Below, piece after piece: positions 27,396-64,000 of a stretch of 64,000 bases of DNA. Numbering within the stretch: position 1 is the stretch's first letter; each line of letters opens with the position of its first letter. Origin of the DNA: Lingula anatina. Lineage: Eukaryota > Animalia > Brachiopoda. The stretch spans positions 10,168,001-10,232,000 of the forward strand of contig CM120645.1 in assembly GCA_051362555.1 (NCBI GenBank), read 5' to 3'. The notes below the pieces were generated by a model. That model worked only from the letters and a program-made list of their open reading frames with translations. It did no database searches and had not been told where the DNA came from. Made by a program: the position numbers and the translations under genes.

Positions 27396-27713
27396 TTATA
27401 CTATTGCTAAAAGGCTATGGAAATAGATTCACTGCTCAAATGACACTTGTTTTTTACCATTGATTCTTTCTTGGAATTGATTATGGAATTCGGTAAAGTT
27501 ACAAGAGCATATGACATCAAATATTTTACCTTGTAGAAACTTTTTTTTATAAATTTAGAAGGGGCCAGTCGAGGTCCAACTATTATCTTCAATCTCCCCT
27601 ACAAAGTACCAAGTAAGTTGCAACAATTTTCTGTCGGTCATTTGGAATGAATATTTATTTCTTTATCATACCTTTATCATACATATTTCAAACTTTTCAT
27701 CTTCAGGTAAGCC

Positions 27714-28681: not shown

Positions 28682-28719
<38 letters not shown>

Positions 28720-29616: not shown

Positions 29617-29698
<82 letters not shown>

Positions 29699-31639: not shown

Positions 31640-31721
<82 letters not shown>

Positions 31722-36856: not shown

Positions 36857-39800
36857 TTATCTATTATTTGCTGCTGGGAACACAGCTCTGTAGATGACAA
36901 CAGAGGCCACTTTCAGGGGTTCAAAGATGAACACCTCCTCCAGCAGAGCAAACACGACAAGACAGGCCCAGCGGTATGAGCTCTCTGTGGTCAGCTCAAT
37001 CATGTAGATCTCAGTGAAGAACAGAGAGATGAAGACAGAGCACAGGAGAAGGGCAATAATGATGTAAAGCACATAGTGTGGGAGTTTCTTCTTCATCTCT
37101 CCTGTTGCCTCCATCTCTAGCTGAAGTAGCTGGGCATCAGTTAGCTGCTGTGTTGATGTTAGAGATGGCTTTTTGAGTTCATCACCAGGACTGTCATTAT
37201 CTGGAGTATTTTATATAAATATTCAGTTTTTCAATGTGCATAAATTAAAGTTGTTTGAAATTTACTTGAGTCTTACCATAAAAAAACACCCAGAAAAAAA
37301 GAAACAAATTTCATTATAATAATACAGAAAATAATATTAGTAATACTTTTGTTTTAATATTAAGGCACATTTTATAAAGATAAATTGTTGAAGTTTTTTA
37401 AAAATATTTTTAAAGACTGAAAACATAAGAATGAAAGGAAAATCAACAAACACCAAATATTGCTAAAAAATGTAGACACTGACAATGAACTATTTAAATT
37501 ACGAATTCAGCACTTACCATCTTCCAGTTGAAGCACAGCATGCTGGCTGCTCCTCTGTGGAGCTGCATCCAAGAAATCAAAGGCTGACTCAAACACACTT
37601 GCCATGCTGTCCTGGTTGATGGCGCCATCTATCATGCTGCCTTGTTGTACAGCGCTGTCATGGGCAGAAATAACACTGGCATCATCTCTGTAATAGGAAA
37701 AAAGATTTCACAAAAATATATAAATATACAGCATGGAAAAAATCAAAATAAAAAATAATAATAATAAAATATTAATAAATTAAAAAAGTTAATACCAAAA
37801 AAAAAAAAAAAAATAGAATAAAAATATGAGTCGCCTTTCCTGTCACCTATATTACCTTGCTGCCATGTTGGTGTTGCCAGTCTCAGGACCACCGCAGGTG
37901 CCATTGTTATTGTTAATGTTGTCATTGGTCTGCAAGATGCTGGTATCAGACTGTGACCTGGGATGATACCAGGCATCTCATACAGAATTATAAATTACAG
38001 ACAAATTTTGGAGATGGTATAACAAAACTGAGATCCAACCTTAATTAATTAAATGTCAGCAAAATTTTATACATAATTTTCATTTCTTTTTCAAATTGCT
38101 ACCTTTGAAAATTCTTATTTGAATATAATGTTTATATACAAACTGCATCTATAGGTGTAACCTGTAACAATTGTAAACAAGATGTGTATAACTTATGTTA
38201 AAATCATCACTCAATACAGCATCAGATATCACTAGATATAGGTAATACATACCTCTGCAGTCTGATATCTTGGCAAACTCTTGCAGTGGAGGTCTCTACA
38301 TCCATGTGGCTGAGGCGTTTCTTGGCAAGGTTCTGCCTCATGAGTTCAGTCTTGGAGGCCAGTGACACCTGCCTGCTGAATGGCATCTCCTCCCTGTTGA
38401 ACACCATGGTGTGGCGTCTCTGTCTCTTCCCTGGCCAAGCAGATGGGGGAATGGGGCTGGAAGGAGTGAAAAAATAATGAAATATGGCAAAGAATTACGT
38501 ACTCTATTTTTATATACTATAACTAGAATTACAATACAATTCAATTAGTATGATGTTGATTAAATGAAGTGTGGAGAGTTTGAGAGTAATTATCGTACCT
38601 GATGATGGCATGGGAGGAGAGGGCCTTGGTTGGCATTTCATCCATCTCCTCAAAGGGCATATCACTGGGCTGCCAGGCTGACAGCAAGGGCTGGGGCTTG
38701 TCTCCAAGGGGGGTGTTACTCAGGTTGAGCTGAGAGTCCTTGGCACTCACAGAGCCCCTGGCCACTTTGGGAATGGCTGAAATACAGGATGTTGATTTAT
38801 TTTTTGAAAGATGATGCTGGTGTTTCTTTCAATATCAGTTAGTTCTTATACCAGAAATGATTCGGAAAATCATGACAGACATTGAGACCTATTCTAAAAC
38901 TTGGAAATATGGTCATTTCATGACAATTATGCTGACAACTTATAAAAATTTAACCAATAAAAAAATTATTGATCAGTAACAGTTCAATTGATGTAAATAC
39001 CTGAGGGTTTAAAATCCTCCAGCTTCTGTTCCCCACCACAAGCTGTGTAAGTCAGTTCCACAGGGATATCTGCAGTGTCCAGTACCTCACTGAGAGAAGC
39101 TCCATCATGGACCTCAGCCTCCACCAGATACTGGTCCTGGCCTATGGAGACCATGGTGTCATCCTCCACACCATCACTGGCTGGGATGCCTGCATCTCCA
39201 GAGAGAATAAAGGCCTCCTCATCATCTGGGGGAGCATCCCTGCAGGCTTGGCGGGCCATGCTGATTCTTCCTCCTCCACCAGTGTCAGGCTTGTCAGTCC
39301 ATCCCAGGGGGTCCATGTTGAGGATATCATACATCCAGCAGAGGCGTTTGGTCACCGTGTTACATAGGGTGAACTCCACCAGGCAGTTGAGCAGCTTGAT
39401 GACAAAGTGGATGCCAAATGCAATGATGAAGAGGTCCCCAGACACCAGCTGTTTCTCACCACTGGAAGGCTGTGGGGAGGCCACAGTGAGCAGGATGTTC
39501 CCCAGCAGGTAGTTGACATACAGGGAGAACAAGGTCAGGACTGTGAGAGGACGGGACAGGGTGCAGAGGTGCTCACGTGGGCCTCCAAATACAGCGTTTA
39601 CCCACAAGTGGAACTGGAGCAGGTTGGAAGTGATGGTGTTGAACAACCAGCTGAAATGTGAACAAAATGTGAGTGACATTTTTAAATTACACTCATAGCA
39701 AACTATGGCCATATTGTGATATGGGTCTTCATGCCAAATAGCTATAGTCTTAATAAATTTTTTATTTTATTCATATTTATTTACAATTTACTTTAAGCAA

Positions 39801-42549
39801 TGCCTAGACCCTCTAGCATTTGCTTAGCACAAATTGACAATAAATCCATGGAAATAATATGGTCTAACACAAACATTGCTACTGCTATACATTAGACTCT
39901 AGCAACAATTGCAGTAGTTGTTCTAATCTCTCACAAACAATCACAGCTTTCTTGCTGTACCCATAATAATTAATTTATATAGACACACTGTTTTTAAAAC
40001 GAACTGTTTTGCAGGACTTTTCCTGTAAGCCCCCTTAAAAATCATCCATCTCAAAGTCTCAAAGGAATATCATCAATTACTGTTACAAAGTTTTAGCAAG
40101 GAAAGTGAATATACAAGAAATGCAGGTAACTTTCTATTAAGAGTCCCATGCTGTGACTGACCTGCTGCGCGTCTGCTCACTCTGGAAGCATACACAGTGG
40201 GTCTCCTCCCCTCCATTGTGTGCTGGTTTAAGCCAGATATTGCATGGGAAGGTCCACTCCTGCTCCTCAAGGGGGTCATACAGCTTAATGTTGTCCAGGT
40301 GCCTGAAGGGAGATCAGTAACACACTTCACGTACACTTAAAATGGTAAAAGTCATTCATTACTTTTATCTTTACTAATATTGTGTAAGTGAGTAATAGAT
40401 ATTTCAGGAGAAAAGATAAATAAATAAAAAAATAAAGGGAAAAAAACTCACCATTTGGCTTTCTTCCCCTTTCCCTTCTGAGTGATGACCACATGGGACA
40501 TTTTCCCAAGGGGAGCTGTAAGAACAATAGACATTTCAGTTTCACAGCATATTGTCATTAGTAGTAATCCTTTGGCATACATTTACATCAGTTACATGTA
40601 GATATCACAGCTGCAACAAAGCCTAAGCTACTGAAGTTGTCAAAATGAAAAGATTGAAAAAATTGTCGTAAAAGGTTTCTATTGTAGAAAAATTTCCAAA
40701 TGGCAACTGAAAATGAAGATTCCATCTTCTATAATAAAAATAGTCCTATTTCCAAACATACCTTGTGTGTAGACCAGAAACATGTCCTTCTTCCCACGTT
40801 TCAGTATTGGCTGTTCAGTGTCATAGGCTGAGAGTCGGTACCTTGCTGAGGAGCTGGTCTCACTGTACAACTGTACATCTATCTTGGCATTAGTGCCTGC
40901 ATCTGAAAAAAAAAAAAAAAAAAAAAAAGATATTAAATTATTTGAATCAATATCATATATGGGTATGAATTTCCTAAACCTTTTGTACAATCGTTCAATA
41001 TCTATTTTTAAAGATGATTTCAATCTTGATAACAATATAAAAATAAGGCATCAGCTCAAGACAACTCATTTACAAAAGCTATATTTACTTTTTCAGTCCT
41101 TTTTTTCAGCTGGCAAATTAAAAGTTGTTTTAATAAAAAATTAACTTCATTTTATCATCTTTAAGAAAATAAAACCCTAGTTAATACAAACATCTCCTTG
41201 TTGTAGATGTAGCTTACCTTTCCTTAGACCAGTTGTTACAGTCATAATGTAGGCATATTCTGCTCCAGACTCAGCAGGGATGGTAATTATTTTGGACTGA
41301 AGATAAATTTAATGAAAACAAGATAAGGTAAAATAAAATTGTGGATGATATGCATAAAAAATAATAGTAATATGTAAAAATCTTTCTTTAAATATTTGAT
41401 TCCAACTTAAAATTATGGCAACAATTATGAGAAAAAGCTGTTGAATTTATTTATCTTGTTGTAATTTGCAAAACCAAGTTTATTCCCCCCTCCCCCATAA
41501 AAAAGTGAAAAATAATGCTATGAATTGTTAAGGTTAGTACCTTTCTTCGCCTTTTAATCATCACTACAGGCAGTAGGATGAGAAAGGGGATAAGGAATAC
41601 GCTCAAAAGCAATGTGTTGTGCACAACTGAGCCACTAGCAGTAAATGTAGGTAGTGGAATGTACATATCAGAATGGATTAAGCTGCCACTCATTACTCCA
41701 TGTAAAGGAACAGATGAAACTAAAGAGCAAAAAATAAAAAATAAAAAAATAAAAAAAAAGAAAGAAAGAAAGAAAAAAAAGAAAATACAAATCAAAGAAA
41801 ATAAAATAAGAGGTGAATAATATTTGTAAATAAAATATACTTTAGAATATTTAGATAGAAACAGAAATAATAAAGACTAAAACTATTAAAAGAGGAAGAG
41901 AAATAGAAAAGAAAACATGCAAGACGAGAAATCAAGAAAAAAACCTAAAATATATAACAATCATCAACAAAAGAGAGATATGACTAGTGATTGTTTATTC
42001 CTCAGAGCCTCACCTGTTGCTTGAGCATGTGGCAATCTATCATTCTCCACAAAAATGTCATAAATTGGGCCTGAGCTGGGATTCTTTCTAGCTTGGCCCA
42101 TACCGCTGGCTTCAAAATTGACACGAGGCAATGGAAGGCCAAAGCCTGAAATTAAAAATCCACATAAATCAGTGAATCTACTATCTAATAATGATTTATT
42201 TCCTGTAATTTTTAGGGGTATGGATTTATGTTTAAATATTTTCTGAGGCACGCTAAATCTATGCGGTCACGTCCTTGACAACGGTAAACAAACGATGATT
42301 GACATCTTAAACCTTAATTTTTTTAATTCCTGCAATAGGAAACAGCAAAAGTAAACTTCAGTGGCAGATAATTGTTATCTGAATGCACTTTAACTTATAA
42401 AAATGCTGCTGATAAATGGAATTTCCAAAACCTTCGAAATAAAACGAAAACTCACCGCCTCGAGCAATGGCCAAAACAAATAGGAACAACAGTAACTGGC
42501 GTGAAATATTTCCACCAGAATGACCAGCTGATCGTATTAGCTTGATCAT
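36857..42549 (-). CDS. Mini-polycystin-1-like protein copy 1 (signal peptide, short ectodomain, TM1, PLAT/LH2, TM2-3, long loop, TM4-5), 825 aa, 13 coding exons (42456-42549, 42014-42145, 41541-41719, 41218-41296, 40762-40902, 40452-40515, 40162-40302, 39001-39650, 38599-38776, 38253-38456, 37856-37957, 37518-37687, 36857-37200)
   Basis: GT-AG introns phase into a 2478-nt ORF. PLAT: YAYIMTVTTGLRKDAGTNAKIDVQLYS..LKRGKKDMFLV..PLGKMSHVVI..WHLDNIKLYD..WTFPCNIWL. PKD1-family post-PLAT motif FHLWVNAV. TM4-5 motif KKLPHYVLY..SYRW..FIFEPLKV. The start codon could lie in a small upstream exon (~42625-42675). Confidence 0.8.
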
Positions 42550-42676
42550 CCTGTTCCTTATGCAATCAACTCGCTAACAAAATAAACTAATTATTCACAG
42601 ATACTCTATTCTTAAAGAAATACTTGCAAAATTGCAACATGAATAAAAGACGGTAGATTCCGTTCGTCCATCCATG

Positions 42677-42710
42677 TTTGCGCGCAAATTCGTCTGCTTA
42701 TGACGTCATA
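42677..42710. promoter_or_regulatory. Promoter palindromes: TTTGCGCGCAAA (E2F-like) and TATGACGTCATA (full CRE)
   Basis: At 42677-42688 and 42699-42710, just upstream of copy 1; conserved at 50780-50813 and 57708-57741. Confidence 0.6.
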
Positions 42711-43982
42711 TTAGGGCCGAACATAAAATGTAGAACGCAAAAAAAAAAGTTACTTCATAAATAAAAGTAGTTTTTTGTTTAACGGAATTTGAAAATTTTA
42801 CAGAATTGTATGAAAAATAAATCAACTCCTCACATTTTGTACAATAACTGAGATTGATGCAGCATAATACCAATAGTTCACAGGAATAGCGTTCTAGATT
42901 ATTCTTCTTTTTATATCTCAAAACTCTTTTGCTTTTGGAGGCAACTTTTCATCCGTCACACAGTTACCCAAAACGAATAAATTATATTAAATTCCTTTCT
43001 TCTAGGACTCAATTTTTTTTTAAGAGAAGGCACACAAGCCGAAAGCTTGGTCTCTTTTTTCTGTCATAGTTGATTTTTACAGATGCGATTTTAATGCAAT
43101 TATTTGTTGCTTACACCTATGAATTTTATAACTTGGTGGCACAACATCAACACAGCGTATTAAACAGGGTCATCAGTTCAGGAAGTTTCAAGACAAAAGG
43201 TAAAACAGTTTTCCACTTATCGTGTTACTGGCGAAAATGCACGGCGATGTTGACGGCTATATGTACAGACACAGCTGTATCTGTCATAAAAAGGAAATAA
43301 AGAGCAAATACGACAAATAAAAATGATAATCTTTATTGTTTCTGGCACAAAGTAATTGATTGGAGACTGATCTGGGTCAACATGACCTCACTCACTAAAC
43401 AGTATACTTAAACTTTAAAGTGCAGATATACAGTACTGTGCAGGTTTTGTAAATATGCTTCTTTTTTTCCAGAAAAAAATGCATACAATAATAAACCACA
43501 TGATTGAAATAGTCAAATATATTGAAATGGACGGAATAATTTAAAATGCAGTAGCTTTTTAAAATAGTATCACCAAATTTTTGCATATAAGTTATTTTTT
43601 ATTTTTTATTTTTGGATGATTCTGCATTTTGTGATACTAATATGAAATAAAAATGCACAAAGATATATCACATAAGCGCTGTTTAAACAATCATTCTGAT
43701 AAATACTCAATATAGGTCGTCCATCTTCTAATGAGAAGTAAAAACTGACAGTTTATTTATTTGATCCTATTGTAATAAAACTGGTACCTTTGTTTATTTT
43801 CGTGGTTAAGATAAGATTTCAGTTTGTACTACTTGCTTTCATTCTGTTTTCTTTTGAAGAGAAACTTTTGACAGTGTGACAAATTGAAAAACAAAAGTTG
43901 TCAAAAACCCAGTGCCGAGGATTGAAAATTTCAGTGAAAGTCAACTACATCCTCAGACATTCAGCAAAGTGAGTATCACAAG

Positions 43983-46900
43983 TTATCTATTATTTGCTGC
44001 TGGGAACACAGCTCTGTAGATGACAACAGAGGCCACTTTCAGGGGTTCAAAGATGAACACCTCCTCCAGCAGAGCAAACACGACAAGACAGGCCCAGCGG
44101 TATGAGCTCTCTGTGGTCAGCTCAATCATGTAGATCTCAGTGAAGAACAGAGAGATGAAGACAGAGCACAGGAGAAGGACAATAATGATGTAAAGTACAT
44201 AGTGTGGGAGTTTCTTCTTCATCTCTCCTGTTGTCTCCATCTCTAGCTGAAGTAGCTGGGCATCAGTTAACTGCTGTGTTGATGTTAGAGATGGTTTTTT
44301 GAGGTCATCACCAGGGCTACCATCATCTGGAGTATTTAATATAAATATTCAACAAAAAATGACAATATACAAATATCTTTTTAGGTTCATTTAAAGGGCC
44401 AAAGAAAAATAGAAACTAAAGCATGTTCAATTATGATAATCAAGGAAATGATATTAAATTAAGTAACAATTTTTACAATTGATGTTTTCACAGAGAGCTA
44501 TGTTTTGTAAAAGAAATTTACTGAAGGTTAATTTTTTAAAATATTAAAAAAATTTGATTTATTTATATTTATTTGAAAAGAAAAGAAAGGTTAATCAAAT
44601 AACACTAAATGTAACTAGAGAATATATAAAAGTTGGACAAATATCAATAAAAATGCAGTGACCAAAGATCAATGCTGATATTGTACTATATCAAAAGAAG
44701 ATTTTCTAACATACATGTACATCAAAAAAGAAGTACACAACATACCATCTTCCAGGTGAAGCACAGCATAGGCAGACTCAAACACAGTTGCCATGCTGTC
44801 CTGGTTGATGGCGCCATCTACCATGCTACCTTGTTGTACAACGTTGCCATGGGCAGAAATAGCACTGGCGTCATCTCTGTAATTGGAAGAAAGATTTCAC
44901 AAAAATAAATAAATGAACAGTATGTGAAAAACCAAATAAAACAAAGTAATAATAAAATATGAATTAATTACAAAAGATGACTGAATAAAATAAGAAATAG
45001 AATAATAAAATAAAAATATAAGTCGCCTTTCCCGTCCCCTGTATTAATTACCTTGCTGTCATGTTGGTGTTGCCAGTCTCAGGATCACCACTGGTGCCAT
45101 TGCTATTGTTCATGTTGTCATTGGTCTGCAAGATGCTGGTATCAGACTGTGACCTGGGATGATAACAGATAACATACAAAATTATAAATTATAGACATAT
45201 TTTGGACACGCTCGGCTGTCACCTTGATTGGATAGTAAACGATTGTCGTAAAATCGCTAAATGATATTAAAACCGGGTGCATAAACTTGAAAACCACCTA
45301 CAACAACCTTGGACTGCCACATTAATCCAATACAATGCAAACATAAACTATAACAAGTGGTTAAAGCCTTCAAACCGAATGTCGTAAAGTCCCCATATAC
45401 CTCCATAGAGACAATAAAATAGAATGAGCTTCTGAAACAAACCTGATCCAGTTCCAACAGAATAATCGAAATAAAATACTGCCGGGCATCGGAGCGGCCT
45501 AAAACTTGGCACGCTTACCGCTAATACTGCAGGCTACATCATCCCGTCGCTCGTTTGTAAATTCCGTGCATGGCATACGCACAATCAAACCGTAAAAAAC
45601 AAATTCTCGGGGTGTCGTTGGCTAGGTCCACTCAACAATCCAATTCAGGAAATGACGTAACCGCAGAGGTCGCATTGTCCAATGGCATGGCTTCTTTTTC
45701 GTAATGGTAGGTTAGAGTGGACCTGGCCAACGACACCCCGAGAATTTGTTTTTTACGGTTTGATTGTGCGTATGCCATGCACGGAATTTACAAACGAGCG
45801 ACGGGATGATGTAGCCTGCAGTATTAGCGGTAAGCGTGCCAAGTTTTAGGCCGCTCTGATGCCCGGCAGTATTTTATTTCGATTATTCTGTTGGAACTGG
45901 ATCAGGTTTGTTTCAGAAGCTCATTCTATTTTATTGTCTCTATGGAGGTATATGGGGACTTTACGACATTCGGTTTGAATGCTTTAACCACTTGTTATAG
46001 TTTATGTTTGCATTGTATTGGATTAAAGTGGCAGTCCAAGGTTGTTGTAGGTGGTTTTCAAGTTTATGCACCTGGTTTTAATATCATTTAGCGATTTTAC
46101 GACAATCGTTTACTATCCAATCAAGGTGACAGCCGAGCGTGATTTTGGAGATGACATACATGTAACTAAACTGAGATCCAACCTTAATTAATTAAATTTG
46201 AAATTGTATGCAAGTGCCATCAGCAAAATCTTTTACATAATTTTCATGCCTTATTGAAAATTCCTATTTGAATATTATGTTTATATACAAACTGCTATAT
46301 GTGTAACAATTGTAAACACCATGTGAAATTAACTTATCTTGAAATCATCACTCAATACAGCATCAAATATCACTAGATATAGGTAATACATACCTCTGCA
46401 GTCTGATATCTTGGCAAACTCTTGCAGTGGAGGTCTCTACATCCATGTGGCTGAGGCATTTCTTGGCAAGGTTCTGCCTCATGAGTTCAGTCTTGGAGGC
46501 CAGTGACACCTGCCTGTTGAATGGCATCTCCTCCCTGTTGAACACCATGGTGTGGCGTCTCTGTCTCTTCCCTGGCCCAGCAGATGGGGGAATGGGGCTG
46601 GAAGATGTGAAAAATAATAAATTATGGCAAAGAATTACTCTATTTTTATATACTATAACTATAATTACAATACAATTCAATTAGTATGATGTTGATTAAA
46701 TGAAGTGTGGAGAGTTTGAGAGTAATTACCGTACCTGATGATGGCATGGGAAGACAGTGCCTTGGTTGGCATTTCATCCATCTCCTCAAAGGGCATATCA
46801 CTGGGCTGCCAGGCTGACAGCAAGGGCTGGGGCTTGTCTCCAAGGGGGGTGTTACTCAGGTTGAGCTGAGAGTCCTTGGCACTCACAGAGCCCCTGGCCA

Positions 46901-49822
46901 CTTTGGGAATGGCTGAAATACAGGATGTTGATTTATTTTTTGAAAGATGATGCTGGTGTTTCTTTCAATATCAGTTAGTTCTTATACCAGAAATGATTCG
47001 GAAAATCATGACAGACATTGAGACCTATTCTAAAACTTGGAAATATGGTCATTTCATGACAATTATGCTGACAACTTATAAAAATTCAACCAATAAGAAA
47101 ATTATTGATCAGTAACAGTTCAATTGATGTAAATACCTGAGGGTTTAAAATCCTCCAGCTTCTGTTCCCCACCACAAGCTGTGTAAGTCAGTTCCACAGG
47201 GATATCTGCAGTGTCCAGTACCTCACTGAGAGAAGCTCCATCATGGACCTCAGCCTCCACCAGATACTGGTCCTGGCCTATGGAGACCATGGTGTCATCC
47301 TCCACACCATCACTGGCTGGGATGCCTGCATCTCCAGAGAGAATAAAGGCCTCCTCATCATCTGGGGGAGCATCCCTGCAGGCTTGGCGGGCCATGCTGA
47401 TTCTTCCTCCTCCACCAGTGTCAGGCTTGTCAGTCCATCCCAGGGGGTCCATGTTGAGGATATCATACATCCAGCAGAGGCGTTTGGTCACCGTGTTACA
47501 CAGAGTGAACTCCACCAGGCAGTTGAGCAGCTTGATGACAAAGTGGACACCAAATGCAATGATGAAGAGGTCCCCAGACACCAGCTGTTTCTCACCACTG
47601 ACAGGCTGTGGGGAGGCCACAGTGAGCAGGATGTTCCCCAGCAGGTAGTTGACATACAGGGAGAACAAGGTCAGGACTGTGAGAGGACGGGACAGGGTGC
47701 AGAGGTGCTCACGTGGGCCTCCAAATACAGCGTTTACCCACAAGTGGAACTGGAGCAGGTTGGAAGTGATGGTGTTGAACAACCAGCTGAAATGTGAACA
47801 AAGGGAGGCATTATTAAATTTCACTCAAAGCACACTGTGATATGTTTTTTCATGTCAAATAGCTATAGTCTTAATAAATTCTTAATTTACTTATTTATAT
47901 TTATTTACTTTTAATTCTAAGCAATGCTTAGACCTTCTTGCATTTGTCTAGCACAAATGGACAATAAATCTATGTAAATAATATAGTTAAACACACAGAA
48001 TGGTACTGCTATACAAAGACTCTAGCATCAGTTGCAGTAGTTGTTCTAATCTCTCACAAACACAATCACAGCTTTCTTGCTGTACCCATAATTTATATGG
48101 ACACACTGCTTTCAAAAGGAACTGACTCTGTTTTCCAGGACGTTGCCTTTAAGCCAACTTAAAAATCATCCATCTTAAATGTCTCAAATGACATACAATA
48201 CTGTTACAAAGTTCTAGCATGGAAAGTGAATTTACAAGCATTACAGGTAACATTTCAACTGACTAAGAGCTCCATGCTGTGACTGACCTGCTTCGTGTCT
48301 GCTCACTCTGGAAGCATACACAGTGGGTCTCCACCCCTCCATTGTGTGCTGGTTTAAGCCAGATATTACATGGGAAGGTCCACTCCTGCTCCTCCAGGGG
48401 ATCATACAGCTTAATGTTGTCCAGGTGCCTGAAGGGAGATCAGTAACACACTTCACATACACTTAAAATGGTAAAAGCCATTCATTACTTTTATCTTTAC
48501 TAATATTGTCTAAGTGAGTAATAGATATTTCAGGAGAAAAGATAAATAAATAAAAATAAAGGGAAAAAAACTTACCATTTGGCTTTCTTCCCCTTTCCTT
48601 TCTGAGTGATGACCACATGGGACATTTTCCCAAGGGGAGCTGTAAGAACAATAGACATTTCAGTTTCATAGCATATTGTCATTACTAGTAGTCCTTTGGC
48701 ATACATTTTATCAGTGACATGTAGATATCACAGCTGCAACAAAGCCTAAGCTATTGAAGTTGTCAAAATGAAAAGATTGAAAAAATTGTCAGAAAATGTT
48801 TCTATTGTGGAAAAATTTCCAAATGGCAACTGAAAATGAAGTTTCCATCTTCTATAATAAATATAATCCTATTTCCAAACATACCTTGTGTGTAGACCAG
48901 AAACATGTCCTTATTCCCACGTTTCAGTATTGGCTGTTCAGTGTCATAGGCTGAGAGTCGGTACCTTGCTGAGGAGCTGGTCTCACTGTACAACTGTACA
49001 TCTATCTTGGCATTAGTGCCTGCATCTGGAAAAAAAAAAGATATTAAATTATTTGAATCATATATGGGTATATATGTCCTAAATGTTTTGTACAAATCGT
49101 TCAATATCTATTTTTAAAGATGATTTCAATCTTGATAACAATATAAAAATAAGGCATCAACTCAAGACTACTCATTTACAAAAGCTATATTTACTTTTTC
49201 ATTTCTTTTCTTCAGCTGGCAAATTAATAGTTGTTTTGATAAAAAATTAACTACATTTTATCATCTTTAAGGAAATAAAACCCTAGTTAATACAAATATC
49301 TCCTTGTTGTAGATGTGGCTTACCTTTCCTTAGACCAGTTGTTACAGTCATAATGTAAACATAGTCTGCTTCAGCCTCAGCAGGGATGGTAATTATTTTG
49401 GACTGAAGATAAATTTAATGAAAACAAGATAAGGTAAAAAAATTGTGGACGACATGCATAAAAAATAATAGTAATATGTAAAAATCTTTCTATAAATATT
49501 TGATTCCAACTTAAAATTATGGCAACAATTATGAGAAAAATCTTGTTGCAATTTGCAAAACAAAGTTTATTCCAAAGACCCCCCCCCCCCCCCATAAAAG
49601 AGTGAAAAATAATGCTATGAATTGTTAAGGTTAGTACCTTTCTTCGTCTTTTAATCATCACTACAGGCAGTAGGATGAGAAAGGGGATAAGGAATACGCT
49701 CAAAAGCAATGTGTTGTGCACAACTGAGCCACTAGCAGTAAAAGTAGGTAGTGGAATGTACATATCAGAATGGATTAAGCTGCCACTCATTACTCCATGC
49801 AAAGGAACAGATGAAACTAAAG

Positions 49823-49853
<31 letters not shown>

Positions 49854-51882: not shown

Positions 51883-54800
51883 TTATCTATCATTTGCTGC
51901 TGGGAACACAGTTCTGTAGATGACAACAGAGGCCACTTTCAGGGGTTCAAAGATGAACACCTCCTCCAGCAGAGCAAACACGACAAGACAGGCCCAGCGG
52001 TATGAGCTCTCTGTGGTCAGCTCAATCATGTAGATCTCAGTGAAGAACAGAGAGATGAAGACAGAGCACAGGAGAAGAACAATAATGATGTAAAGCACAT
52101 AGTGTGGGAGTTTCTTCTTCATCTCTCCTGTTGCCTCCATCTCTAGCTGAAGTAGCTGGGCATCAGTTAGCTGCTGTGTTGATGTAAGAGATGGCTTTTT
52201 GAGTTCATCACCAGGACTGCCATCATCTGGAGTATTTAATATAAATATTCAACAAAAAATGACAATATACAAATATCTTTTTAGGTTCACCATTTAAAGG
52301 ACCAAAGAAAAATAGAAATTAAAGCATGTTCAATTATGATAATCAAGGAAATTATATTAAATTAAGTAACAATTTTTACGATTGATGTTTTCACAGACAG
52401 CTATGACATGTTTTGTTAAAGAAATTTACTGAAGGTTAATTTTTTTAAATATTAAAAGAAAAGAAAGGTTTATCAAATAACACTAAATGTAACTAGAGAA
52501 TATATCAAAGTCGGACAAATATCAATAAAAATGCAGTGACCAAAGATCAATTAATGCTGATATTGTACTATATCAAAAGAAGATTTTCTTACATACAGCA
52601 AAAAAGAAGTACACAACCTACCATCTTCCAGGTGAAGCACAGCATAGGCAGACTCAAACACAGTTGCCATGCTGTCCTGGTTGATGGTGCCATCTATCAT
52701 GCTGCCTTGTTGTACAACGTTGTGATGGGCAGAAATAGCACTGGCGTCATCTCTGTAATAGGAAGAAAGATTTCAAAAAAAAAAAAATAAATGAATTGTA
52801 TGTGAAAAATCAAAATAAAATAATAATAAAATATAATTTAATTAAAAAAGATGACTGAATAAAATAAGAAATAGAATAATAAAATAAAAATATAAGTCGC
52901 CTTTCCTGTCCCCTGCATTACCTTGCTGTCATGTTGGTGTTGCCAGTCTCAGGATCACCACTGGTGCCATTGCTATTGTTAATGTTGTCATTGGTCTGCA
53001 AGATGCTGGTATCAGACTGTGACCTGGGATGATTACAGACACAATTACAAATTAGAGATATATTTTGGACATGACATATCTTAACTAAGATCCAACCTTA
53101 ATTAAATTTGAAATTACATGCAAATGCAACAAAATTTTATACATCAATATTCTATTTCTTTGTCATATTGCTTCCTTTCAAAAATTTTATCTGAATGTTA
53201 TATTTATGTACAACCTACCTATTACCTATATGTGTAAGCGCTAACAATTGTTATAAACACTTATCCTAAAATCATCACTAAATACAGCATCAAATATCAC
53301 TAGATATGTGTAATATGTACCTCTGCAGCCTGATATCTTGGCAAGCTCTTGCAGCGGAGGTCTCTACGTCCATGTGGCTGAGGCGTTTCTTGGCAAGGTT
53401 CTGCCTCATGAGTTCAGTCTTAGAGGCCAGTGATGCCTGCCTGCTGAATGGCATCTCCTCCCTGTTGAACACCATGGTGTGGCGCCTCTGTCTCTTCCCT
53501 GGCCCAGCAGATGGGGGAATGGGGCTGGAAGATGTGAAAAATAATAAATTATGGCAAAGAATTACTTTATTTTTATATACTATAACTAGAATTACAATAC
53601 AATTCAATTAGTAGAATGTTGATTAAATGAAGTGTGGAGAGTTTAAGAATAATTACCGTACCTGATGATGGCATGGGAAGACAGTGCCTTGGTTGGCATT
53701 TCATCCATCTCCTCAAAGGGCATATCACTGGGCTGCCAGGCTGACAGCAAGGGCTGGGGCTTGTCTCCAAGGGGGGTGTTCCTCAGGTTGAGCTGAGAGT
53801 CCTTGGCACTCACAGAGCCCCTGGCCACTTTTGGAATAGCTGAAATACAGGATGTTGATTTATTTTTTGATAGATGATGCTGGTGTTTCTTTCAATATCA
53901 GTTAGTTCTTATACCAGAAATGATTCGGAAAAACCTGACAGACTTTGAAACCTATTCTAAAACTCGGAAATATGGTCATTTCATGACAATTATGCTGACA
54001 ACTTATAAAAATTCAACCAATAAGAAAATTATTGATAAGTAACAGTTCAATTGATGTAAATACCTGAGGGTTTAAATTCCTCCAGCTTCTGTTCCCCACC
54101 ACAAGCTGTGTAAGTCAGTTCCACAGGGATATCTGCAGTGTCCAGTACCTCACTAAGAGAAGCTCCATGATGGACCTCAGCCTCCACCAGATACTGATCC
54201 TGGCCTATGGAGACCATGGTGTCATCCTCCACACCATCACTGGCTGGGATGCCTGCATCTCCAGAGAGAATAAAGGCCTCCTCATCATCTGGGGAAGCAT
54301 CCCTGCAGGCCTGGCGGGCCATGCTGATTCTTCCTCCTCCACCAGTGTCAGGCTTGTCAGTCCATCCCAGGGGGTCCATGTTGAGGATATCATACATCCA
54401 GCAGAGGCGTTTGGTCACCGTGTTACATAGGGTGAACTCCACCAGGCAGTTGAGCAGCTTGATGACAAAGTGGATGCCAAATGCAATGATGAAGAGGTCC
54501 CCAGACACCAGCTGTTTCTCCCCACTGGCAGGCTGTGGGAAGGCCACAGTGAGCAGGATGTTCCCCAGCAGGTAGTTGACATACAGGGAGAACAGGGTCA
54601 GGACTGTGAGAGGACGGGACAGGGTGCAGGGGTGCTCACGTGGGCCTCCAAATACAGCATTGACCCAGAGGTGGAACTGGAGCAGGTTGGAAGTGATGGT
54701 GTTGAACAACCAGCTGAAATGTGAACAAAATGTGAGTGACATTTTTAAAAATCACTCATAGCAAACTTTGCTCACATTGTTATATGGTTCTTCATGCCAA

Positions 54801-57580
54801 ACAGCTATAGTCTTAATAAATTTTTTATTTTATTCATATTTATTTACTATTTACTTTAAGCAATGCCTAGACCCTCTAGCATTTGTCTAGCACAAATTGA
54901 CAATAAATCCACGGAAATAATATGGTCTAACACAAACATTGTGACTGCTATACATTAGAGTCTAGCAACAATTGCAGTAGTTGTTCTAATCTCTCACAAA
55001 CACAATCACAGCTTTCTTGCTGTACCCATAATAATTAATTTATATGGACACACTGTTTTTAAAATGAACTGTTTTGCAAGACTTCTCCTTTAAGCCCCCT
55101 TAAAAATCATCCATCTCAAAGTCTCAAAGGAATGTCATCAATTACTGTTACAAAGTTTTAGCAATGAAAGTGAATATACAAGAAATGCAGGTAACTTTCT
55201 ATTAAGAGTCCCATGCTGTGACTGACCTGCTGCGTGTCTGCTCACTCTGGAAGCATACACAGTGGGTCTCCTCCCCTCCATTGTGTGCTGGTTTAAGCCA
55301 GATATTACATGGGAAGGTCCACTCCTGCTCCTCAAGGGGATCATACAGCTTAATGTTGTCCAGGTGCCTGAAGGGAGATCAGTAACACACTATACGTACA
55401 CTTAAAATGGTAAAAGTCATTCATTACTTTTATCTTTACTAATACTGTCTAAGTGAGTAATAGATATTTCAGGAGGAAAGATGAATAAAAAAAATAAAGA
55501 AAATAAAAACTCACCATTTGGCTTTCTTTCCCTTTCCTCTCTGAGTGATGACCACATGGGACATTTTCCCAAGGGGAGCTGTAAGAACAATAGACATTTC
55601 AGTTTCATAGCATATTGTCATTACTAGTAGTCCTTTGGCATACATTTTATCAGTTATATGTAGATATCACAGCTGCAAAAAAGCCTAAGCTATTGAAGTT
55701 GTCAAAATGAAAAGATTGAAAAAATTGTCAAAAAATGTTTCTATTGTGGAAAAATTTCCAAATGGCAACTGAAAATGAAGATTCCATCTTCTATAATAAA
55801 AATAATCCTATTTCCAAACATACCTTGTGTGTAGACCAGAAACATGTCCTTATTCCCACGTTTCAGTATTGGCTGTTCAGTGTCATAGGCTGAGAGTCGG
55901 TACCTTGATGAGGAGTTGGTCTCACTGTACAACTGTACATCTATCTTGGCATTAGTGCCTGCATCTGGAAAAAAAAAAGATATTAAATTATTTGAATCAT
56001 ATATGGGTATATATGTCCTAAACGTTTTGTACAAATCGTTCAATATCTATTTTTAAAGATGATTTCAATCTTGATAACAATATAAAAATAAGGCATCAAC
56101 TCAAGACTACTCATTTACAAAAGCTATATTTACTTTTTCATTTCTTTTTTTCAGCTGGCAAATTAATAGTTGTTTTAATAAAAAATTAACTACATTTTAT
56201 CATCTTTAAGGAAATAAAACCCTAGTTAATACAAATATCTCCTTGTTGTAGATGTGGCTTACCTTTCCTTAGACCAGTTGTTACAGTCATAATGTAAACA
56301 TAGTCTGCTCCAGACTCAGCAGGGATGGTAATTATTTTGGACTGAAGATAAATTTAATGAAAACAAGATAAGGTTAAAAAAAAATTGTGGACGACATGCA
56401 TAAAAAATAATAGTAATATGTAAAAATCTTTCTATAAATATTTGATTCCAACTTAAAATTATGGCAACAATTATGAGAAAAATCTTGTTGCAATTTGCAA
56501 AACAAAGTTTATTCCAAAGACAACCCCCCCCCCCATAAAAGAGTGAAAAATAATGCTATGAATTGTTAAGGTTAGTACCTTTCTTCGCCTTTTAATCATC
56601 ACTACAGGCAGTAGGATGAGAAAGGGGATAAGGAATACGCTCAAAAGCAATGTGTTGTGCACAACTGAGCCACTAGCAGTAAATGTAGGTAGTGGAATGT
56701 ACATATCAGAATGGATTAAGCTGCCACTCATTACTCCATGCAATGGAACAGATGAAACTAAAGAGCAAAAAAAAAAAAAAAAAAGAAAGAAAGAAAGAAA
56801 AAAAAGAAAATACAAATCAAAGAAAATAAAATAAGAGAAGGTGAATAATATTTGTAAATAAAATATACTTTAGAATATTTAGATAGAAACAGAAATAATA
56901 AAGACTAAAACTATTAAAAGAGGAAGAGAAATAGAAAAGAAAACATGCAAGACGAGAAATCAAGAAATAAAAACCTTCTGAAATATACAACAATCATCAA
57001 CAAAAGAGAGATATGACTAGTGATTGTTTATTCCTCAGAGCCTCACCTGTTGCTTGAGCATGTGGCAATCTATCATTCTCCACAAAAATGTTATAAATTG
57101 GGCCAGAGCTGGGATTCTTTCTAGCTTGGCCCATACCGCTGGCTTCAGAATTGGCACGAGGCAATGGAAGGCCAAAGCCTGAAATAAATAATCCAAATAA
57201 ATCAGTGAATCAACTATCTAATAATGATTTATTTCATGTAATTTGTATGGGTATGGATTTATGTTTAAATATTTTCTGTGGCACGTCTATGCAGTCACGT
57301 CCTTGACAACGGTAAACAAACGATGATTGACATCTTAAACCTTAAGTTTTTTGAAAATTCCTGCGATAGGGCACACCAAAATCAAACTTCAATGGCAGAT
57401 AATTGTTATTTTAAAGCTTATTTACCAATAAAAAAGCTATTGGTAAACTGAATTTCTAAAACATTCGAAATAAAACGAAAACTTACCTCCTCGAGCAATG
57501 GCCAAAACAAATAGAAACAATAGTAACTGGTGTGAAATATTTCCACCAAAATGACCAGCTAATCGTATTAGCTTGATCAT
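51883..57580 (-). CDS. Mini-polycystin-1-like protein copy 3, ~812 aa, apparently intact
   Basis: Same exon set; large exon 54064-54713 is 650 nt; splice sites conserved. No disabling lesion seen. Confidence 0.78.
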
Positions 57581-58801
57581 CCTGTTCCTTGTGCGATCAA
57601 GTCGCTAGCAAAATAACCTAATTATTCACAGATACTCTATTCTTTAAGAAATACATGCAAAATTGCAACATGAATAAAAGACGGTAGATTCCGTTCGTCC
57701 ATCCATGTTTGCGCGCAAATTCGTCTGCTTATGACGTCATAGTACGGCCGTATCTAAAATGTGGAACGCAAAAAAATTACTTCATAAATAAAAGTAGTTT
57801 TTTGTTAAATGATATTTGAAAATTTTACAGAATTTTATGAAAAATAACCAATCTTATCGTTTTGTACAATATCTGAAATTTATGCAGCGTAATATCAAAG
57901 AGTTCACAGGAATAGCGTTCCAGATTACTCTTCTTTTTATATCTCTGAACTCTTTTCTTTTGGGGGGCATGTTTTCATCTGTCACAGATTTACCAGCAAT
58001 ACGAATAATATATTCGATTCCTTTCTTCAGGGTCTCAAAAAATTTTAAGTCCAGACACATCTGTGTTTGTGCATAAAAAGGAAATAAAGCAACTACGACA
58101 ATTTCACAAATAAAAATAATAACACAATATATAAAAATGATAATCTTTATTGTTTCTGGCACAAAGTAACTGATTAGGGACTGACCTGGGTCAACATGAC
58201 CTAACTCCCTCAACAGTATATTTTAAGTGCAGATACAGTACTGTGCAGGTCTTGTACATATGCTTCTTTTTTTCCAGAAAAAATGCATACAATAATAAAC
58301 CACATGATTGAAATAGTCAAATATTTTGAAATGGATGGATAATTTAAAATACAGTAGCTTTTTAGAATAGTATCACCTAATTGTTGCATATCAGTCATAG
58401 TTTTTTTTTTTAATGACAGTTGTATCTTAATAAATAATTCTACATTTTGTGATACTAATATAAATAAAATTGCACACGGATATATCACATAAGTGCTGTT
58501 TAACAAATCAGTCTGATAAATACTCAATAGGTTAATTGTCCATCTTTGAATAAGAAGTAAAAGCTTACAGTTTGTTCATTTGATCCTATTGTAATAAAAC
58601 TGGTACCTTTGTTTATTTTTGTGGTTAAGATAAGATTTCAGTTTGTAGTACTTGCTTTCATTCTGATTTGTTTTTTGAAGTGAAACTTTTGACAGTGTGA
58701 CAAATTGAAAAATGAGAGTCAAAAATCCAGTGCTGAGGATTTGAAAATTTCAGAAAAAGTCAGCATCATCCTCAGACATTCAGCAAAGTGAGTATCACAA
58801 G

Positions 58802-61800
58802 TTATCTATTATTTGCTGCTGGGAACACAGCTCTGTAGATGACAACAGAGGCCACTTTCAGGGGTTCAAAGATGAACACCTCCTCCAGCAGATCAAACAC
58901 GACAAGACAGGCCCAGCAGTATGAGCTCTCTGTGGTCAGCTCAATCATGTAGATCTCAGTGAAGAACAGAGAGATGAAGACAGAGCACAGGAGAAGAACA
59001 ATAATGATGTAAAGCACATAATGTGGGAGTTTCTTCTTCATCTCCCCTGTTGCCTCCATCTCTAGCTGAAGTAGCTGGGCATCAGTTAGCTGCTGTGTTG
59101 ATGTTAGAGATGGTTTTTTGAGGTCATCACCAGGGCTTCCATCATCTGGAGTATTTAAAAATTAACAAAAAAATGAAAATCAAGGAAGTGATAATCAAAG
59201 AAATGGCATTAAACTAAGTAAGAATTTTTACAATTGTTGTTTCCATAGAGAGATAATTTTAGAGGTTATTTTTTTAAATATTAAATTTTTTTATTTACAT
59301 GAAATTTGCAAATAAAAGAAAGGTTAATCAAATAACACTAAATGTAACTAGGGAATACATGTATTATGTATATCAAAGTCAGACAAATATCAATAAAAAT
59401 GCAGAGACCAACAATACTGATAATGATGTGGTACTATATCAAAAGTAGATTTTTTAACATACAGCAAAAAGGAAGTACACAACCTACCATCTTCCAGGTG
59501 AAGCACAGCATAGGCAGACTCAAACACAGTTGCCATGCTGTCCTGGTTGATGGGGCCATCTACCATGCTGCCTTGTTGTACAACGTTGTCATGGGCAGAA
59601 ATAGCACTGGCGTCATCTCTGTAATTGGCAGAAAGATTTCACAAAAATAAATAAATGAACAGTATGTGAAAAACCAAATAAAACAAAATAATAATAAAAT
59701 ATGAATTAATTACAAAAGATGACTGAATAAAATAAGAAATAGAATAATAAAATAAAAATATAAGTCGCCTTTCCCGTCCCCTGTATTAATTACCTTGCTG
59801 TCATGTTGGTGTTGCCAGTCTCAGGACCACCACTGGTGTCATTGTTATTGTTCATGTTGTCATTGGTCTGCAAGATGCTGGTATCAGACTGTGACCTGGG
59901 ATGATAGCAGATAACATACAAAATTATAAATTATAGACGTATTTTGGAGATGACATACATGTAACTAAACTGAGATCCAACCTTAATTAATTAAATTTGA
60001 AATTGTATGCAAGTGCCATCAGCAAAATCTTTTACATAATTTTCATGCCTTTTTGAAAATTTCTATTTGAATATTATGTTTATATTAATTATACAAACTG
60101 CTACATGTGTAACAATTGTAAACACCATTAGTAACTTATCTTAAAATCATCACTCAATACAGCATCAGATATCACTAGATATACCGGTATATATATGTAA
60201 TACATACCTCTGCAGCCTGATATCTTGGCAAACTCTTGCAGTGGAGGTCTCTACATCCATGTGGCTGAGGCGTTTCTTGGCAAGGTTCTGCCTCATGTGT
60301 TCTGTCTTGGAGGCCAGTGATGCCTGCCTGTTGAATGGCATCTCTTCCCTGTTGAACACCATGGTGTGGCGCCTCTGTCTCTTCCCTGGCCCAGCAGATG
60401 GGGGAATGGGGCTGGAAGATGTGAAAAAATAATGAAATATGGCAAAGAATTACTCTATATTTATATACTATAACTAGAATTACAATACAATACAATTAGT
60501 AGAATGTTGATGAAATGACGTGTGGAGAGTTTGAGAGTAATTACCGTACCTGATGATGGCATGGGAGGACAGTGCCTTTGCTGGCATTTCATCCATCTCC
60601 TCAAAGGGCATATCACTGGGCTGCCAGGCTGACAGCAAGGGCTGGGGCTTGTCTCCAAGGAGGGTGTTACTCAGGTTGAGCTGAGAGTCCTTGGCACTCA
60701 CAGAGCCCCTGGCCACTTTAGGAATGGCTGAAATACAGGGTGTTTGCATATTTACTTACTGATAGGTGATGCTGGTGTTTCTATCCATATCAGCTGATTC
60801 TTACACCAGAAATTATTAAAACAAACCAGGGAGATTCTGAAACCTATACTAAAACCCAGAAATATGGTTATTGCCCAATAATTGTGGTATTAAAAACTTA
60901 ACAAAAATTCCACCAATAAGAAGATTATTGACAAGCAGGGGCGTAACCAGAACATTTAAAATTGTACGCACAGATTTTGAAAATTCACAGGTACGATTAT
61001 ATTCCGTGAAAATACACTAAATTTATGGAGAATAATATCATGGTTGGCTCAAAAAATTGTACGCACAGTGCATCCGTGCGTATGCCTGGTTACGCCCCTG
61101 ACAAGTATTTTAATACTGTTTAAAAACAGTCCAATGTAAAGAAAATACCTGAGGGTTTGAATTCTGAGCTTCTGTTCCCCACCACAAGCTGTGTAAGTCA
61201 GTTCCACAGGGATATCTGCAGTGTCCAGTACCTCACTTTGAGAAGCTCCATGATGGACCTCAGCCTCCACCAGATATTGGTCCTGGCCTATGTAGACCAT
61301 GGTGTCATCCTCCACACCAACACTGGCTGGGATGCCTGCATCTCCAGAGAGAATAAAGGCCTCCTCGTCATCTGGGGGAGCATCCCTGCAGGCCTGGCGG
61401 GCCATGCTGATTCTACCTCCCCCACCAGTGTCAGGCTTGTCATTCCATCCCAGGGGGTCCATGTTGAGGATATCATACATCCAGCAGAGGCGTTTGGTCA
61501 CTGTGTTACACAGGGTGAACTCCACCAGGCAGTTGAGCAGCTTGATGACAAAGTGGATGCCAAATGCAATGATGAAGAGGTCCCCAGATACCAACTGTTT
61601 CTCCCCACTGGCAGGCTGTGGGAAGGCCACAGTGAGCAGGATGTTCCCCAGCAGGTAGTTGACATACAGAGAGAACAGGGTCAGGACTGTGAGAGGACGG
61701 GACAGGGTGCAGGGGTGCTCACGTGGACCTCCAAACACAGCATTGACCCACAGGTGGAACTGGAGCAGGTTGGAAGTGATGGTGTTGAACAACCAACTGA

Positions 61801-64000
61801 AATGTGAACAAAATGTGAGTGACATTTTTAAATTACACTCGTAGCAAACTATGGCCACATTGTGATATGGGTCTTCATGCCAAATAGCTATAGTCTTAAT
61901 AAATTTTTTATTTTATACATATTTATTTACCATTTACTTTAAGCAATGCCTAGACCCTCTAGCATTTGTCTAGCACAAATTGACAATAAATCCACGGAAA
62001 TAATATGGTCTAACACAAACATTGTGACTGCTATACATTAGAGTCTAGCAACAATTGCAGTAGTTGTTCTAATCTCTCACAAACACAATCACAGCTTTCT
62101 TGCTGTACCCATAATAATTAATTTATATGGACACACTGTTTTTAAAACGAACTGTTTTGCAGGACTTTTCCTTTAAGCCCCCTTAAAAATCATCCATTTC
62201 AAAGTCTCAAAGGGATATCATAAATTACTGTTACAAAATTTTAGCAAGGAAAGTGAATATACAAGAAATGCAGTTAACTTTCTATAAAGAGTCCCATGTT
62301 GTGACTGACCTGGTGCGTGTCTGCTCACTCTGGAAGCATACACAGTGGGTCTCCTCCCCTCCATTGTGTGCTGGTTTAAGCCAGATATTACATGGGAAGG
62401 TCCACTCCTGCTCCTCCAGGGGATCATACAGCTTGATGTTGTCCAGGTGCCTAAAGTGTGATCAGTAAAACACTATACGTACTGTACACTCATTATGGTC
62501 TTTACATTTAATTATTTTAGTTATTCAGAAATTTCAGATACCTCACTCACGAACTCTTAAAATAATTTTTTTTTCAAGATATTCAGATATAAGTTTTCAC
62601 AAAAGTACACAATCCCATTTCAAACCAAAATTCTTTAGTAAAAAAGTCTTAAGTGTCTTTCTTACTTATTACACATAAACATTTTCTAAGCAAAATATGT
62701 TAAATTAGTATTGAGGATTAAGTTGTTCATTTTACATGTACACCTATGATACTGAGCTGATAGAAAAATGAAGCAAAATCTCACCATTTGGCTTTCTTCC
62801 CCTGTCCATTCTGAATGATGACCACATGGGACATTTTCCTAAGGGGAGCTGCAAAAACAACAGACTTCCGAGTTCCATAATGTATTATTTAGTAGTAGTA
62901 GTAGAAGTTTAGAATATATTTTATTAGTTTGATATTGAAGGTGCAACAAAGCCTAGGCTATTGATGACTTCGCACAGTTGTCAAAATGAAAAAAATTGAA
63001 AATATTTTTCAGAAAGTGTTTATATTGTGAAAAATTTTCAAATGGCAACTGAAAATGAAGATTCCATCTTCTATAATAAAAATTATCATATTTGCCAGTG
63101 TACCTTGTGTGTAGACCAGAAACATGTCCTTATTCCCACGTTTCAGTATTGGCTATTCAGAGTCATAGGCTGAGAGTCTGTACTTTGCTGAGGAGCTGGT
63201 CTCACTGTACAACTGAACATCTATCTTGGCATTAGTGCCTGCATCTGAAAAGAAAAAGATATTACATTATTTGAATCATATATAAGTATGTATGTCCTTA
63301 ACCTTTTGTACAAATCGTTCAAGATCTATTCTTATAGATGATTTAAATCTTGATAAATATATATATATATAAAAGGCACTAACTCAAGACTACTCATTTA
63401 CAAAAGCTATATTTACTTTTTAAGTACTTTTCTTCAGCTGGCAAATTAAGAGTTTTTAAAATAAAAAATTAACTTCATTTTATCATCTTTAAGGAAATAA
63501 AACCCTAGTTAATAAAAATATCTCCTGGTTGTAGATGTGGCTTACCTTTCCTAAGTCCAGTTGTTACAGTCATGATGTAGGCATATTCTGCTCCAGACTC
63601 AGCAGGGATGGTAATTATTTTGGACTGAAGATTAAACGAATGAAAACAAGATAAAGTTAAAAGGTGTACTCATTTTCAAAATAAATAAATCAATAAATAA
63701 ATAAATAGGAGAGAGAGAGAGAGATAAAGAATACCATTTTTTCTACATTGAGATTTTATCAGTACAAATACCAGCAAAACAAAATCATTTGGTTTCATTG
63801 ACTATTTAATACTGGTAGTTCCTTTAAAAATAATAGTAATTTGTAAAAATCTTTTTTTTAAATAATTGATTCAAACTTAAAGATATTGCAATAATTATGA
63901 GAAAAAGCTATTGAATTTATTTATCTTGTTGCAATTTGCAAATTTGCGAAACGAAGTTTATTCCAAAGACCCCCCCCCATAAAAAAGTGAAAATTAATGC
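58802..64000 (-). pseudogene. Mini-polycystin-1-like copy 4, frameshifted; 5' exons lie beyond the window
   Basis: Large exon 61149-61796 is 648 nt instead of 650 (AAGCTCAGAATTCAAACCC vs AAGCTGGAGGAATTTAAACCC). Splicing to the next exon gives AGC CAT TCC TAA. Confidence 0.7.
60936..61100. mobile_element. hAT-like MITE with a 5-bp TSD in a copy 4 intron
   Basis: TIR CAGGGGCGTAACCAG / CTGGTTACGCCCCTG; ACAAG on both sides; absent from the same intron in copies 1-3. Confidence 0.85.

Follow-up and report, generated by a model that had tools for sequence, protein, structure and literature searches.

The locus analysed here raises the question of whether the first five transmembrane (TM) helices of polycystin-1, together with the PLAT domain between TM1 and TM2, can exist as a protein of their own. 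It lies in a 64,000-nucleotide stretch of the Lingula anatina genome (assembly GCA_051362555.1, contig CM120645.1, positions 10,168,001 to 10,232,000; hereafter the window, in whose own numbering all positions are given). A first-pass annotation of this DNA had described a tandemly amplified PKD1 TM1-PLAT-TM2-5 module with its own signal peptide, free of the GAIN and REJ ectodomain and of the channel domain, and had known of no described family with this architecture. In agreement with the claimed amplification, self-BLAST detected four tandem units (U1 to U4), all on the minus strand and spread from 36.7 to 64 kb, with 84-96% identity at the DNA level. Our comparisons indicate that this array is a real, lineage-restricted variant of the PKD1-like proteins, that its family is older than the earlier annotation could know, and that it is less unprecedented than was claimed.

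Gene models anchored on the exons that recur in each unit had AG/GT ends at all introns and open reading frames in U1, U2 and U3. The U1 model runs from an ATG at 42549 to a stop at 36857 over 13 exons and encodes 825 amino acids (aa). The 13-exon models of U2 and U3 encode 812 aa because their exon 12 is 39 nt shorter, and the length of 825 aa stated beforehand thus applies to U1 only. U4 is cut by the window edge, with exons 4-13 inside, and its reading frame is interrupted twice, by a TAG in exon 5 (near 63154) and by the loss of 2 nt where exon 8 ends (near 61160). U4 is therefore a pseudogene, which the first-pass annotation had overlooked. As annotated, all four units share the position of the terminal TAA, 17 aa past the FEPLK motif. 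The distances from one stop to the next ATG amount to 1433, 1230 and 1221 nt, which leaves no room for a GAIN, REJ or channel exon between units. Each complete unit is preceded by a duplicated upstream block with TGACGTCA located 159 nt before the ATG, and it is this block, rather than a promoter as such, that we could verify from the proposal that every complete unit has its own promoter.

The predicted product of an intact unit consists of a signal peptide, an ectodomain of ~80 aa, TM1, PLAT, TM2-3, a loop of ~360 aa and TM4-5. The signal peptide was judged by eye and from hydropathy (window 19, cut-off 1.3), which for U1 displayed, besides a stretch at the N-terminus, five main peaks of membrane length (residues 112, 315, 350, 755 and 789). 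The near-identical database model P0004 matched PLAT (E 1.6e-14) as its sole Pfam family at a cut-off of E 0.01, so that PLAT was present, and GPS and REJ were absent from the Pfam matches, as expected from the first-pass annotation; single exons gave weak or no matches in Pfam and PDB. AlphaFold2 modelled the PLAT block of P0004 with a predicted local distance difference (pLDDT) score of 78-97, the helices with moderate confidence and the loop as disordered, at an overall predicted template-modelling score (pTM) of 0.37. This first model rested on an alignment that was misaligned at TM4-5; a second one, from a better but shallower alignment, had a lower pTM of 0.29, and the models lack TM1. 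Fold searches with the first model retrieved the PLAT fold only, the rows being filled by PLAT and generic helices, and no polycystin chain was among the rows shown in either search with this model, which is of low confidence outside PLAT. In the ESM Atlas, matches were confined to generic clusters of PLAT and PKD1L2.

Profile comparisons addressed the origin of the module. A profile built from Lingula sequences only ranked human polycystin-1 (PC1) first among the solved structures, with E 3.9e-13 over TM1-PLAT-TM2, while lipoxygenase followed with E 5.9e-7, six orders of magnitude worse. A TM4-5 profile of three Lingula sequences matched PKD1-like proteins at E 1e-8 to 6.5e-18, and together with blastp it showed TM2-TM5 to be homologous to PKD1 by sequence. 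Pfam and profile alignment to human PKD1 also placed the array PLAT directly after TM1, as in the canonical polycystin-1 family. The matches of the two profiles identify the module, at the sequence level, as PKD1-derived. The HDN-type motif of PLAT, a loop with a role in calcium binding, was absent from all six Lingula rows of our alignment and present in 26 of the 29 other PKD1-like rows, and the mean net charge of PLAT was +6.7 in Lingula versus -2.0 in these other rows.

The array does not stand alone in Lingula. The five database models of the array (P0001-P0004 and P0006) have the same junctions for exons 5-13, bar one alternative acceptor and small variants; three of them, including the NCBI model P0001, end at the stop of the array, and the protein encoded by U1 exon 13 matches a Lingula anatina protein at 96%. 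When P0004 was compared by phmmer with 1.84 billion representatives, 719 matches were obtained at E 0.001. Among the 150 listed, most cover many short PLAT stretches; besides the array models, four match over PLAT and TM2-3 at 36-40% identity, all from Lingula loci, and no ortholog outside Lingula was seen among these 150 as far as they were named or inspected. Likewise, of the 7987 candidates scored in a profile search, four matched, and all of these are from Lingula. Searches by words have little power, and few brachiopod relatives are probably present in the databases. Two NCBI loci, LOC106179263/4, bear consecutive numbers and are listed with the same scaffold length, which suggests tandem copies in another assembly.

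The Lingula paralogs share the architecture of the array. P0013 (1764 aa) and P0156 (2023 aa) have a signal peptide, an ectodomain without GPS, TM1, PLAT, TM2-3, a loop of 1000-1500 aa and TM4-5, and stop 22-23 aa after an FQP motif; P0019 has the same C-terminus. Alignment of the U1 ectodomain with those of P0156 and P0025, where 0 and 1 of 1000 shuffles, respectively, reached the observed score, supports exons 2 and 3 of the gene model. A loop segment including RR(H/Y)T and QRS(Q/K)SD aligned between U1 and P0013 with a score of 115 (shuffles 43.5 +/- 5.7; 0 of 200 as high), and the RSxS motif was present in all five paralog models checked. An unrooted tree of 35 sequences and 377 columns, picked from matches with a PLAT-TM match, united the six Lingula rows in one clade (support 100/100) on a long stem of 2.0 substitutions per site, with weak support (79/65) for its placement. 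As the paralogs, at 36-40% identity, carry signal peptides of their own and end alike, the five-helix/PLAT architecture is judged to be old and to represent one Lingula clade, found in no other species searched. Two observations on the paralogs stand apart from this. The loops of P0013, P0031 and P0156 contain a CxxC...HWxC motif with the look of a zinc-binding site, in two copies in P0031 and P0156, which is absent from the window copies and has no Pfam match. The ectodomains of P0025 and P0013 carry basic clusters before the conserved juxtamembrane segment, with a furin-type site in P0025 and none in U1.

Neither the 2891 six-frame stretches of the window nor ten Lingula proteins (three window models and seven database models) gave a significant match to custom profiles for the channel, GAIN and REJ domains; the GAIN profile found two proteins outside its seed at E ~1e-43, and the REJ profile had no independent positive control. 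Pfam GPS and Pfam REJ were absent from the Lingula proteins scanned. In a tblastn comparison of 17 full-length PKD1-like proteins with the window, 119 of the 122 rows fell on PLAT, exon 8 or the TM4-5 exons. A channel-region row in the spacer between U2 and U1 was dismissed as a chance match (opposite strand, E 0.10, one of the 17 queries), as were two rows downstream of the array (E 0.31 and 0.59). Neither tblastn nor the custom profiles revealed a channel or GAIN exon within 36 kb downstream of the array. We infer that the array proteins cannot form a pore or cleave themselves, and that they are without the C-terminal tail that carries the G-protein site of PC1.

What might such a protein do? 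We consider it rather probable that the array is one member of a Lingula family which descends from a polycystin-1-like ancestor minus GAIN/REJ and the six-helix channel, and that its products serve as a channel-independent membrane scaffold instead of a channel subunit. The signal peptide and TM1 would place the short ectodomain outside the cell, while PLAT, the ~360-aa loop between TM3 and TM4 and the short tail would face the cytosol, a topology taken over from PKD1. The disordered loop, with its conserved RR(H/Y)T and RSxS motifs, which we take to be PKA and 14-3-3 sites, would dock phospho-dependent partners. For the array PLAT, the binding partners would be acidic membrane lipids and trafficking adaptors, as for the PLAT of PC1, which binds phosphatidylserine, PI4P and beta-arrestin and controls trafficking (PMC9672506). 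Since the array PLAT has lost the HDN-type motif and become basic, its binding would likely be charge-driven. The scaffold would thus be lipid-anchored, phospho-regulated and devoid of channel activity, and it is probably produced only in certain cells or at a certain stage.

The main rival to the scaffold reading, which we consider unlikely, is that the array product serves as an auxiliary subunit, binding in trans to a PKD2/TRPP tetramer or to a PKD1 remnant reduced to its channel, at the peripheral place of TM1-5 in the PC1-PC2 complex, and may present a stalk-like motif to the TOP domain. Supporting this idea, TM1-5 form a peripheral complex beside the TM6-11 core in the PC1-PC2 structure (PMC7728438), and stalk peptides of PC1 activate a stalkless PC1 fragment in trans (PMC11458180). 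Moreover, the IP(L/P)P(S/T)F motif that the family has before TM1 aligns with the VPP/LPN part of the stalk, and TM4-5 are well conserved among copies and paralogs. However, the coiled coil and the TM6-11 that join PC1 to PC2 are missing, and the long stem branch also speaks against this reading. In addition, the U1 ectodomain contains no Cys and no Trp; without the cysteines and tryptophans of the GPS, autoproteolysis would yield no free stalk end.

The pairwise ratios of nonsynonymous to synonymous substitution (dN/dS) between the intact copies were 0.36, 0.34 and 0.28 (Fisher p 1.3e-4 or lower), at a synonymous divergence of 5-7%. A ratio of about 0.3 thus shows the signature of purifying, not diversifying, selection on the intact copies. 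Informative sites switch their grouping along the unit (36, 19 and 23 sites for the three groupings), which points to recombination or conversion, and the array fits a history of unequal crossing-over or gene conversion in which copies are born and die. The diversifying selection considered in the first-pass annotation is contradicted by these ratios, by the mosaic history and by the one dead copy. Its central claim, that of a stand-alone PKD1 module and no recent broken fragment, held up: polycystin-1 ranks first in the PDB, paralogs at 36-40% identity are built alike, and dN/dS is 0.28-0.36. As a separate observation, U2 harbours a foldback transposon-like element at 45207-46141 that is 94% self-complementary over 935 bp and has empty sites in U1 and U4.

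Expression was monitored in four RNA runs of unstated tissue (X12, X15, X18 and X20; 44.5 million records, corresponding to 6-30% of each run), from which reads were placed on positions 35400-37350 only. X12 had a depth of about one read pair on U1 exon 13, and X15 contributed one pair across the U1 stop into the 3' flank, whereas X18 and X20 had no reads on exon 13 or the stop region. In both pairs the first mate was on the plus strand, as would be expected of sense reads from a stranded library of the usual kind. The RNA evidence for expression of U1 is weak. Most of the placed reads were taken by a dispersed repeat at 35400-36060 that is transcribed elsewhere; they fitted partially with loose ends and were not counted as array transcripts.

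It is conceivable, though we regard it as rather improbable, that the family is real while the array itself is a near-silent, decaying expansion with little present function. One of the four copies is a pseudogene (U4), P0006 among the database models has the look of a rearranged copy, the depth of RNA is close to zero, and the informative sites change their pattern along the unit. The dead U4 also has a similarly low dN/dS (0.23-0.28 in its pairs), so that the ratio may be inherited. On the other hand, open frames and all splice sites were kept in all three complete units despite their synonymous divergence, and the RNA samples cover only a small part of each run. Finally, we hold it to be very improbable that the array genes are merely parts of longer PKD1-like transcripts, or that they arose through faulty annotation or assembly. 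In favour of this reading, the NCBI models of the array are incomplete (380-457 aa), the ATG is closely preceded by an AG with an open frame, U4 runs off the window so that the start of the array lies beyond its edge, and introns 1-4 of U2 and U3 differ by only ~1%. On the other side, each unit repeats its own start and stop, with spacers of 1.2-1.4 kb between units, no channel or GAIN exon was found in the 36 kb downstream, paralogs at other loci end alike, and LOC106179263/4 suggest tandem copies in another assembly.

Several findings weigh against the reading of the array as a selected, free-standing scaffold gene. Exons 1-4 are in none of the database models of the array, and the Lingula paralogs are gene predictions, not cDNAs. 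P0025 and P0155 have the N-terminal half of the family but no proper TM4-5 end; in the ectodomain, U1 and P0013 align with a borderline score, equalled by 53 of 1000 shuffles, and the loop of P0155 has no significant likeness to that of U1 (155 of 200 shuffles). Both structure models of P0004 are poor outside PLAT. The low dN/dS among such young copies partly reflects their ancestor, and two amphibian channel-less proteins also have a basic PLAT, a trait that is thus not unique to Lingula. Expression was barely seen, with about one read pair in each of two of the four runs, and splice-junction reads were absent from the region on which reads were placed. The coordinates of the array features are collected in Table 1.

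Table 1. Features of the polycystin-like array, in window coordinates
Feature	Coordinates	Strand	Basis
U1 exon 1: ATG and predicted signal peptide	42456..42549	-	gene model, hydropathy; ATG preceded by an in-frame TAG at a distance of 27 nt
U1 exon 2: N-terminal ectodomain	42014..42145	-	gene model; 3' part opens the local alignment with paralog ectodomains
U1 exon 3: juxtamembrane IP(L/P)P(S/T)F motif (likely stalk remnant), TM1, basic stop-transfer stretch	41541..41719	-	gene model, hydropathy, alignment
U1 exons 4-7 (41296-41218, 40902-40762, 40515-40452, 40302-40162): PLAT	40162..41296	-	gene model, Pfam, fold searches
U1 exon 8: TM2, TM3, start of long loop	39001..39650	-	gene model, hydropathy
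U1 exons 9-12 (38776-38599, 38456-38253, 37957-37856, 37687-37518): disordered loop, predicted to be cytosolic, in which RRHT and QRSQSD are conserved	37518..38776	-	gene model; junctions shared with P0001-P0004 bar one alternative acceptor
U1 exon 13: TM4, TM5, FEPLK motif, short tail, stop	36857..37200	-	gene model; about two RNA read pairs
U2: intact 13-exon model, 812 aa	43983..50652	-	gene model
U3: intact 13-exon model, 812 aa	51883..57580	-	gene model
U4: pseudogene, exons 4-13 in the window	58802..63624	-	frame breaks
Spacer from U2 stop to U1 ATG, 1433 nt: AATAAA sites and TGACGTCA site; no channel, GAIN or REJ coding	42550..43982	-	sequence scans
935-bp foldback insertion, resembling a miniature inverted-repeat transposable element, in U2 intron 10, with 8-bp target-site duplication	45207..46141	.	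self-comparison

Outside the array, the window contains two single-frame open reading frames for TIR domains at 14834-15421 (minus strand) and 27711-28286 (plus strand), which match Pfam TIR_2 (E 7e-8 and 6e-8), are 76% alike in DNA and lie in opposite orientation. Near them, at 8520-9963 on the minus strand, are protein kinase exons (Pfam Pkinase, E 4e-7 and 8e-4) with the catalytic loop HMNIKPSN, where Asn replaces the usual Asp; we presume that this may be an IRAK/Pelle-like pseudokinase. A tandem duplication of ~2 kb (~85-88% identity) with ATA/ATT microsatellites occupies 28238-32138. Its plus-strand frames are rich in Ser, Thr and Asp and have no Pfam match, and one of them has a hydrophobic tail and perhaps encodes a small anchored protein. 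Minisatellites with periods of 146, 124, 51 and 159 bp were found at 2646-4089, 4855-5210, 14182-14710 and 17710-18102, respectively.

The claim that no such family had been described was upheld in part. Channel-less PKD1-like genes are known, all with GPS or REJ (PMC5318412 for zebrafish pkd1l3; PMC1934368 for SpREJ), and within our literature search, outside of which fell most subscription papers and supplements, we came across no PKD1-like protein in which GAIN and channel are both missing. Zebrafish pkd1l3, with 1083 aa and lectin, GPS and PLAT domains, is called a remnant in PMC5318412. The fish and amphibian PKD1-like models P0127, P0116, P0086, P0159, P0163 and P0120, which stem from six genera or species, stop 20-33 aa beyond their TM5 match and are therefore five-helix PLAT proteins too, which suggests that the 'remnant' pkd1l3 is a conserved channel-less gene. 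P0130, in the same clade, bears a channel; P0080 looks like two fused tandem genes. The planarian PKD1-like proteins were all found via the channel domain (PMC11448475).

The function of the multi-helix core of polycystin-1 is called poorly defined in PMC7728438. The Lingula family was found in one non-model species only, its expression is barely documented and its function is predicted; nonetheless, a natural TM1-5 plus PLAT family under apparent purifying selection, with paralogs at ~40% identity, offers a ready reagent for the role of this half without channel and sensor, and it suggests a second look at fish pkd1l3. Our broader proposal, which we advance tentatively and consider rather unlikely, is that the TM1-5/PLAT half of polycystin-1 is an autonomous functional unit, that the free-standing Lingula family docks in trans on PKD2-type channels or signals alone via its phospho-loop, and that the channel-less pkd1l3 of fish and amphibians would be a convergent second case.

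How, then, does the array compare with known systems? Lipoxygenases, lipases, Rab6IP1/DENND5 and multi-PLAT proteins have the PLAT fold in common with it, but they are without the PKD1-type flanking helices. The canonical polycystin-1 family of 11 TM (human PKD1, PKD1L1-3 and PKDREJ; invertebrate PKD1L2-like proteins) shares with the array the order TM1-PLAT-TM2-3-loop-TM4-5 and the motifs H-x-W before TM2, LP(H/W) at TM4 and (E/Q)P(L/V/I)K at TM5. Unlike this family, most members of which have a REJ domain, the Lingula proteins have no REJ, GAIN/GPS, TOP, channel or coiled-coil tail; the array ectodomain is only ~80 aa long, the TM3-TM4 loop of the Lingula proteins measures 330-1500 aa, and their PLAT is without the HDN-type motif. 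By its sequence features, the array product thus resembles the N-terminal membrane half of polycystin-1 and is outside the canonical family by GAIN, REJ and channel. The 'partial pkd1l3' of ray-finned fish, as given in PMC5318412, and the amphibian models P0127, P0116, P0086, P0159 and P0163 are channel-less like the array; the fish and amphibian models keep GAIN/GPS and some a C-type lectin domain, whereas the array has neither, and in our unrooted tree, in which the placement of Lingula is weak, they fall into a separate vertebrate clade that includes a channel-bearing protein. The sea-urchin SpREJ1, 2, 7, 8 and 9, PKD1-family proteins known from complete cDNAs with 1, 2, 6, 1 and 1 TM, respectively, likewise have fewer than 11 TM. 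In contrast to the Lingula family, which keeps the membrane module and has lost the sensor, these proteins keep the sensor half with REJ and GPS, as described in PMC1934368.

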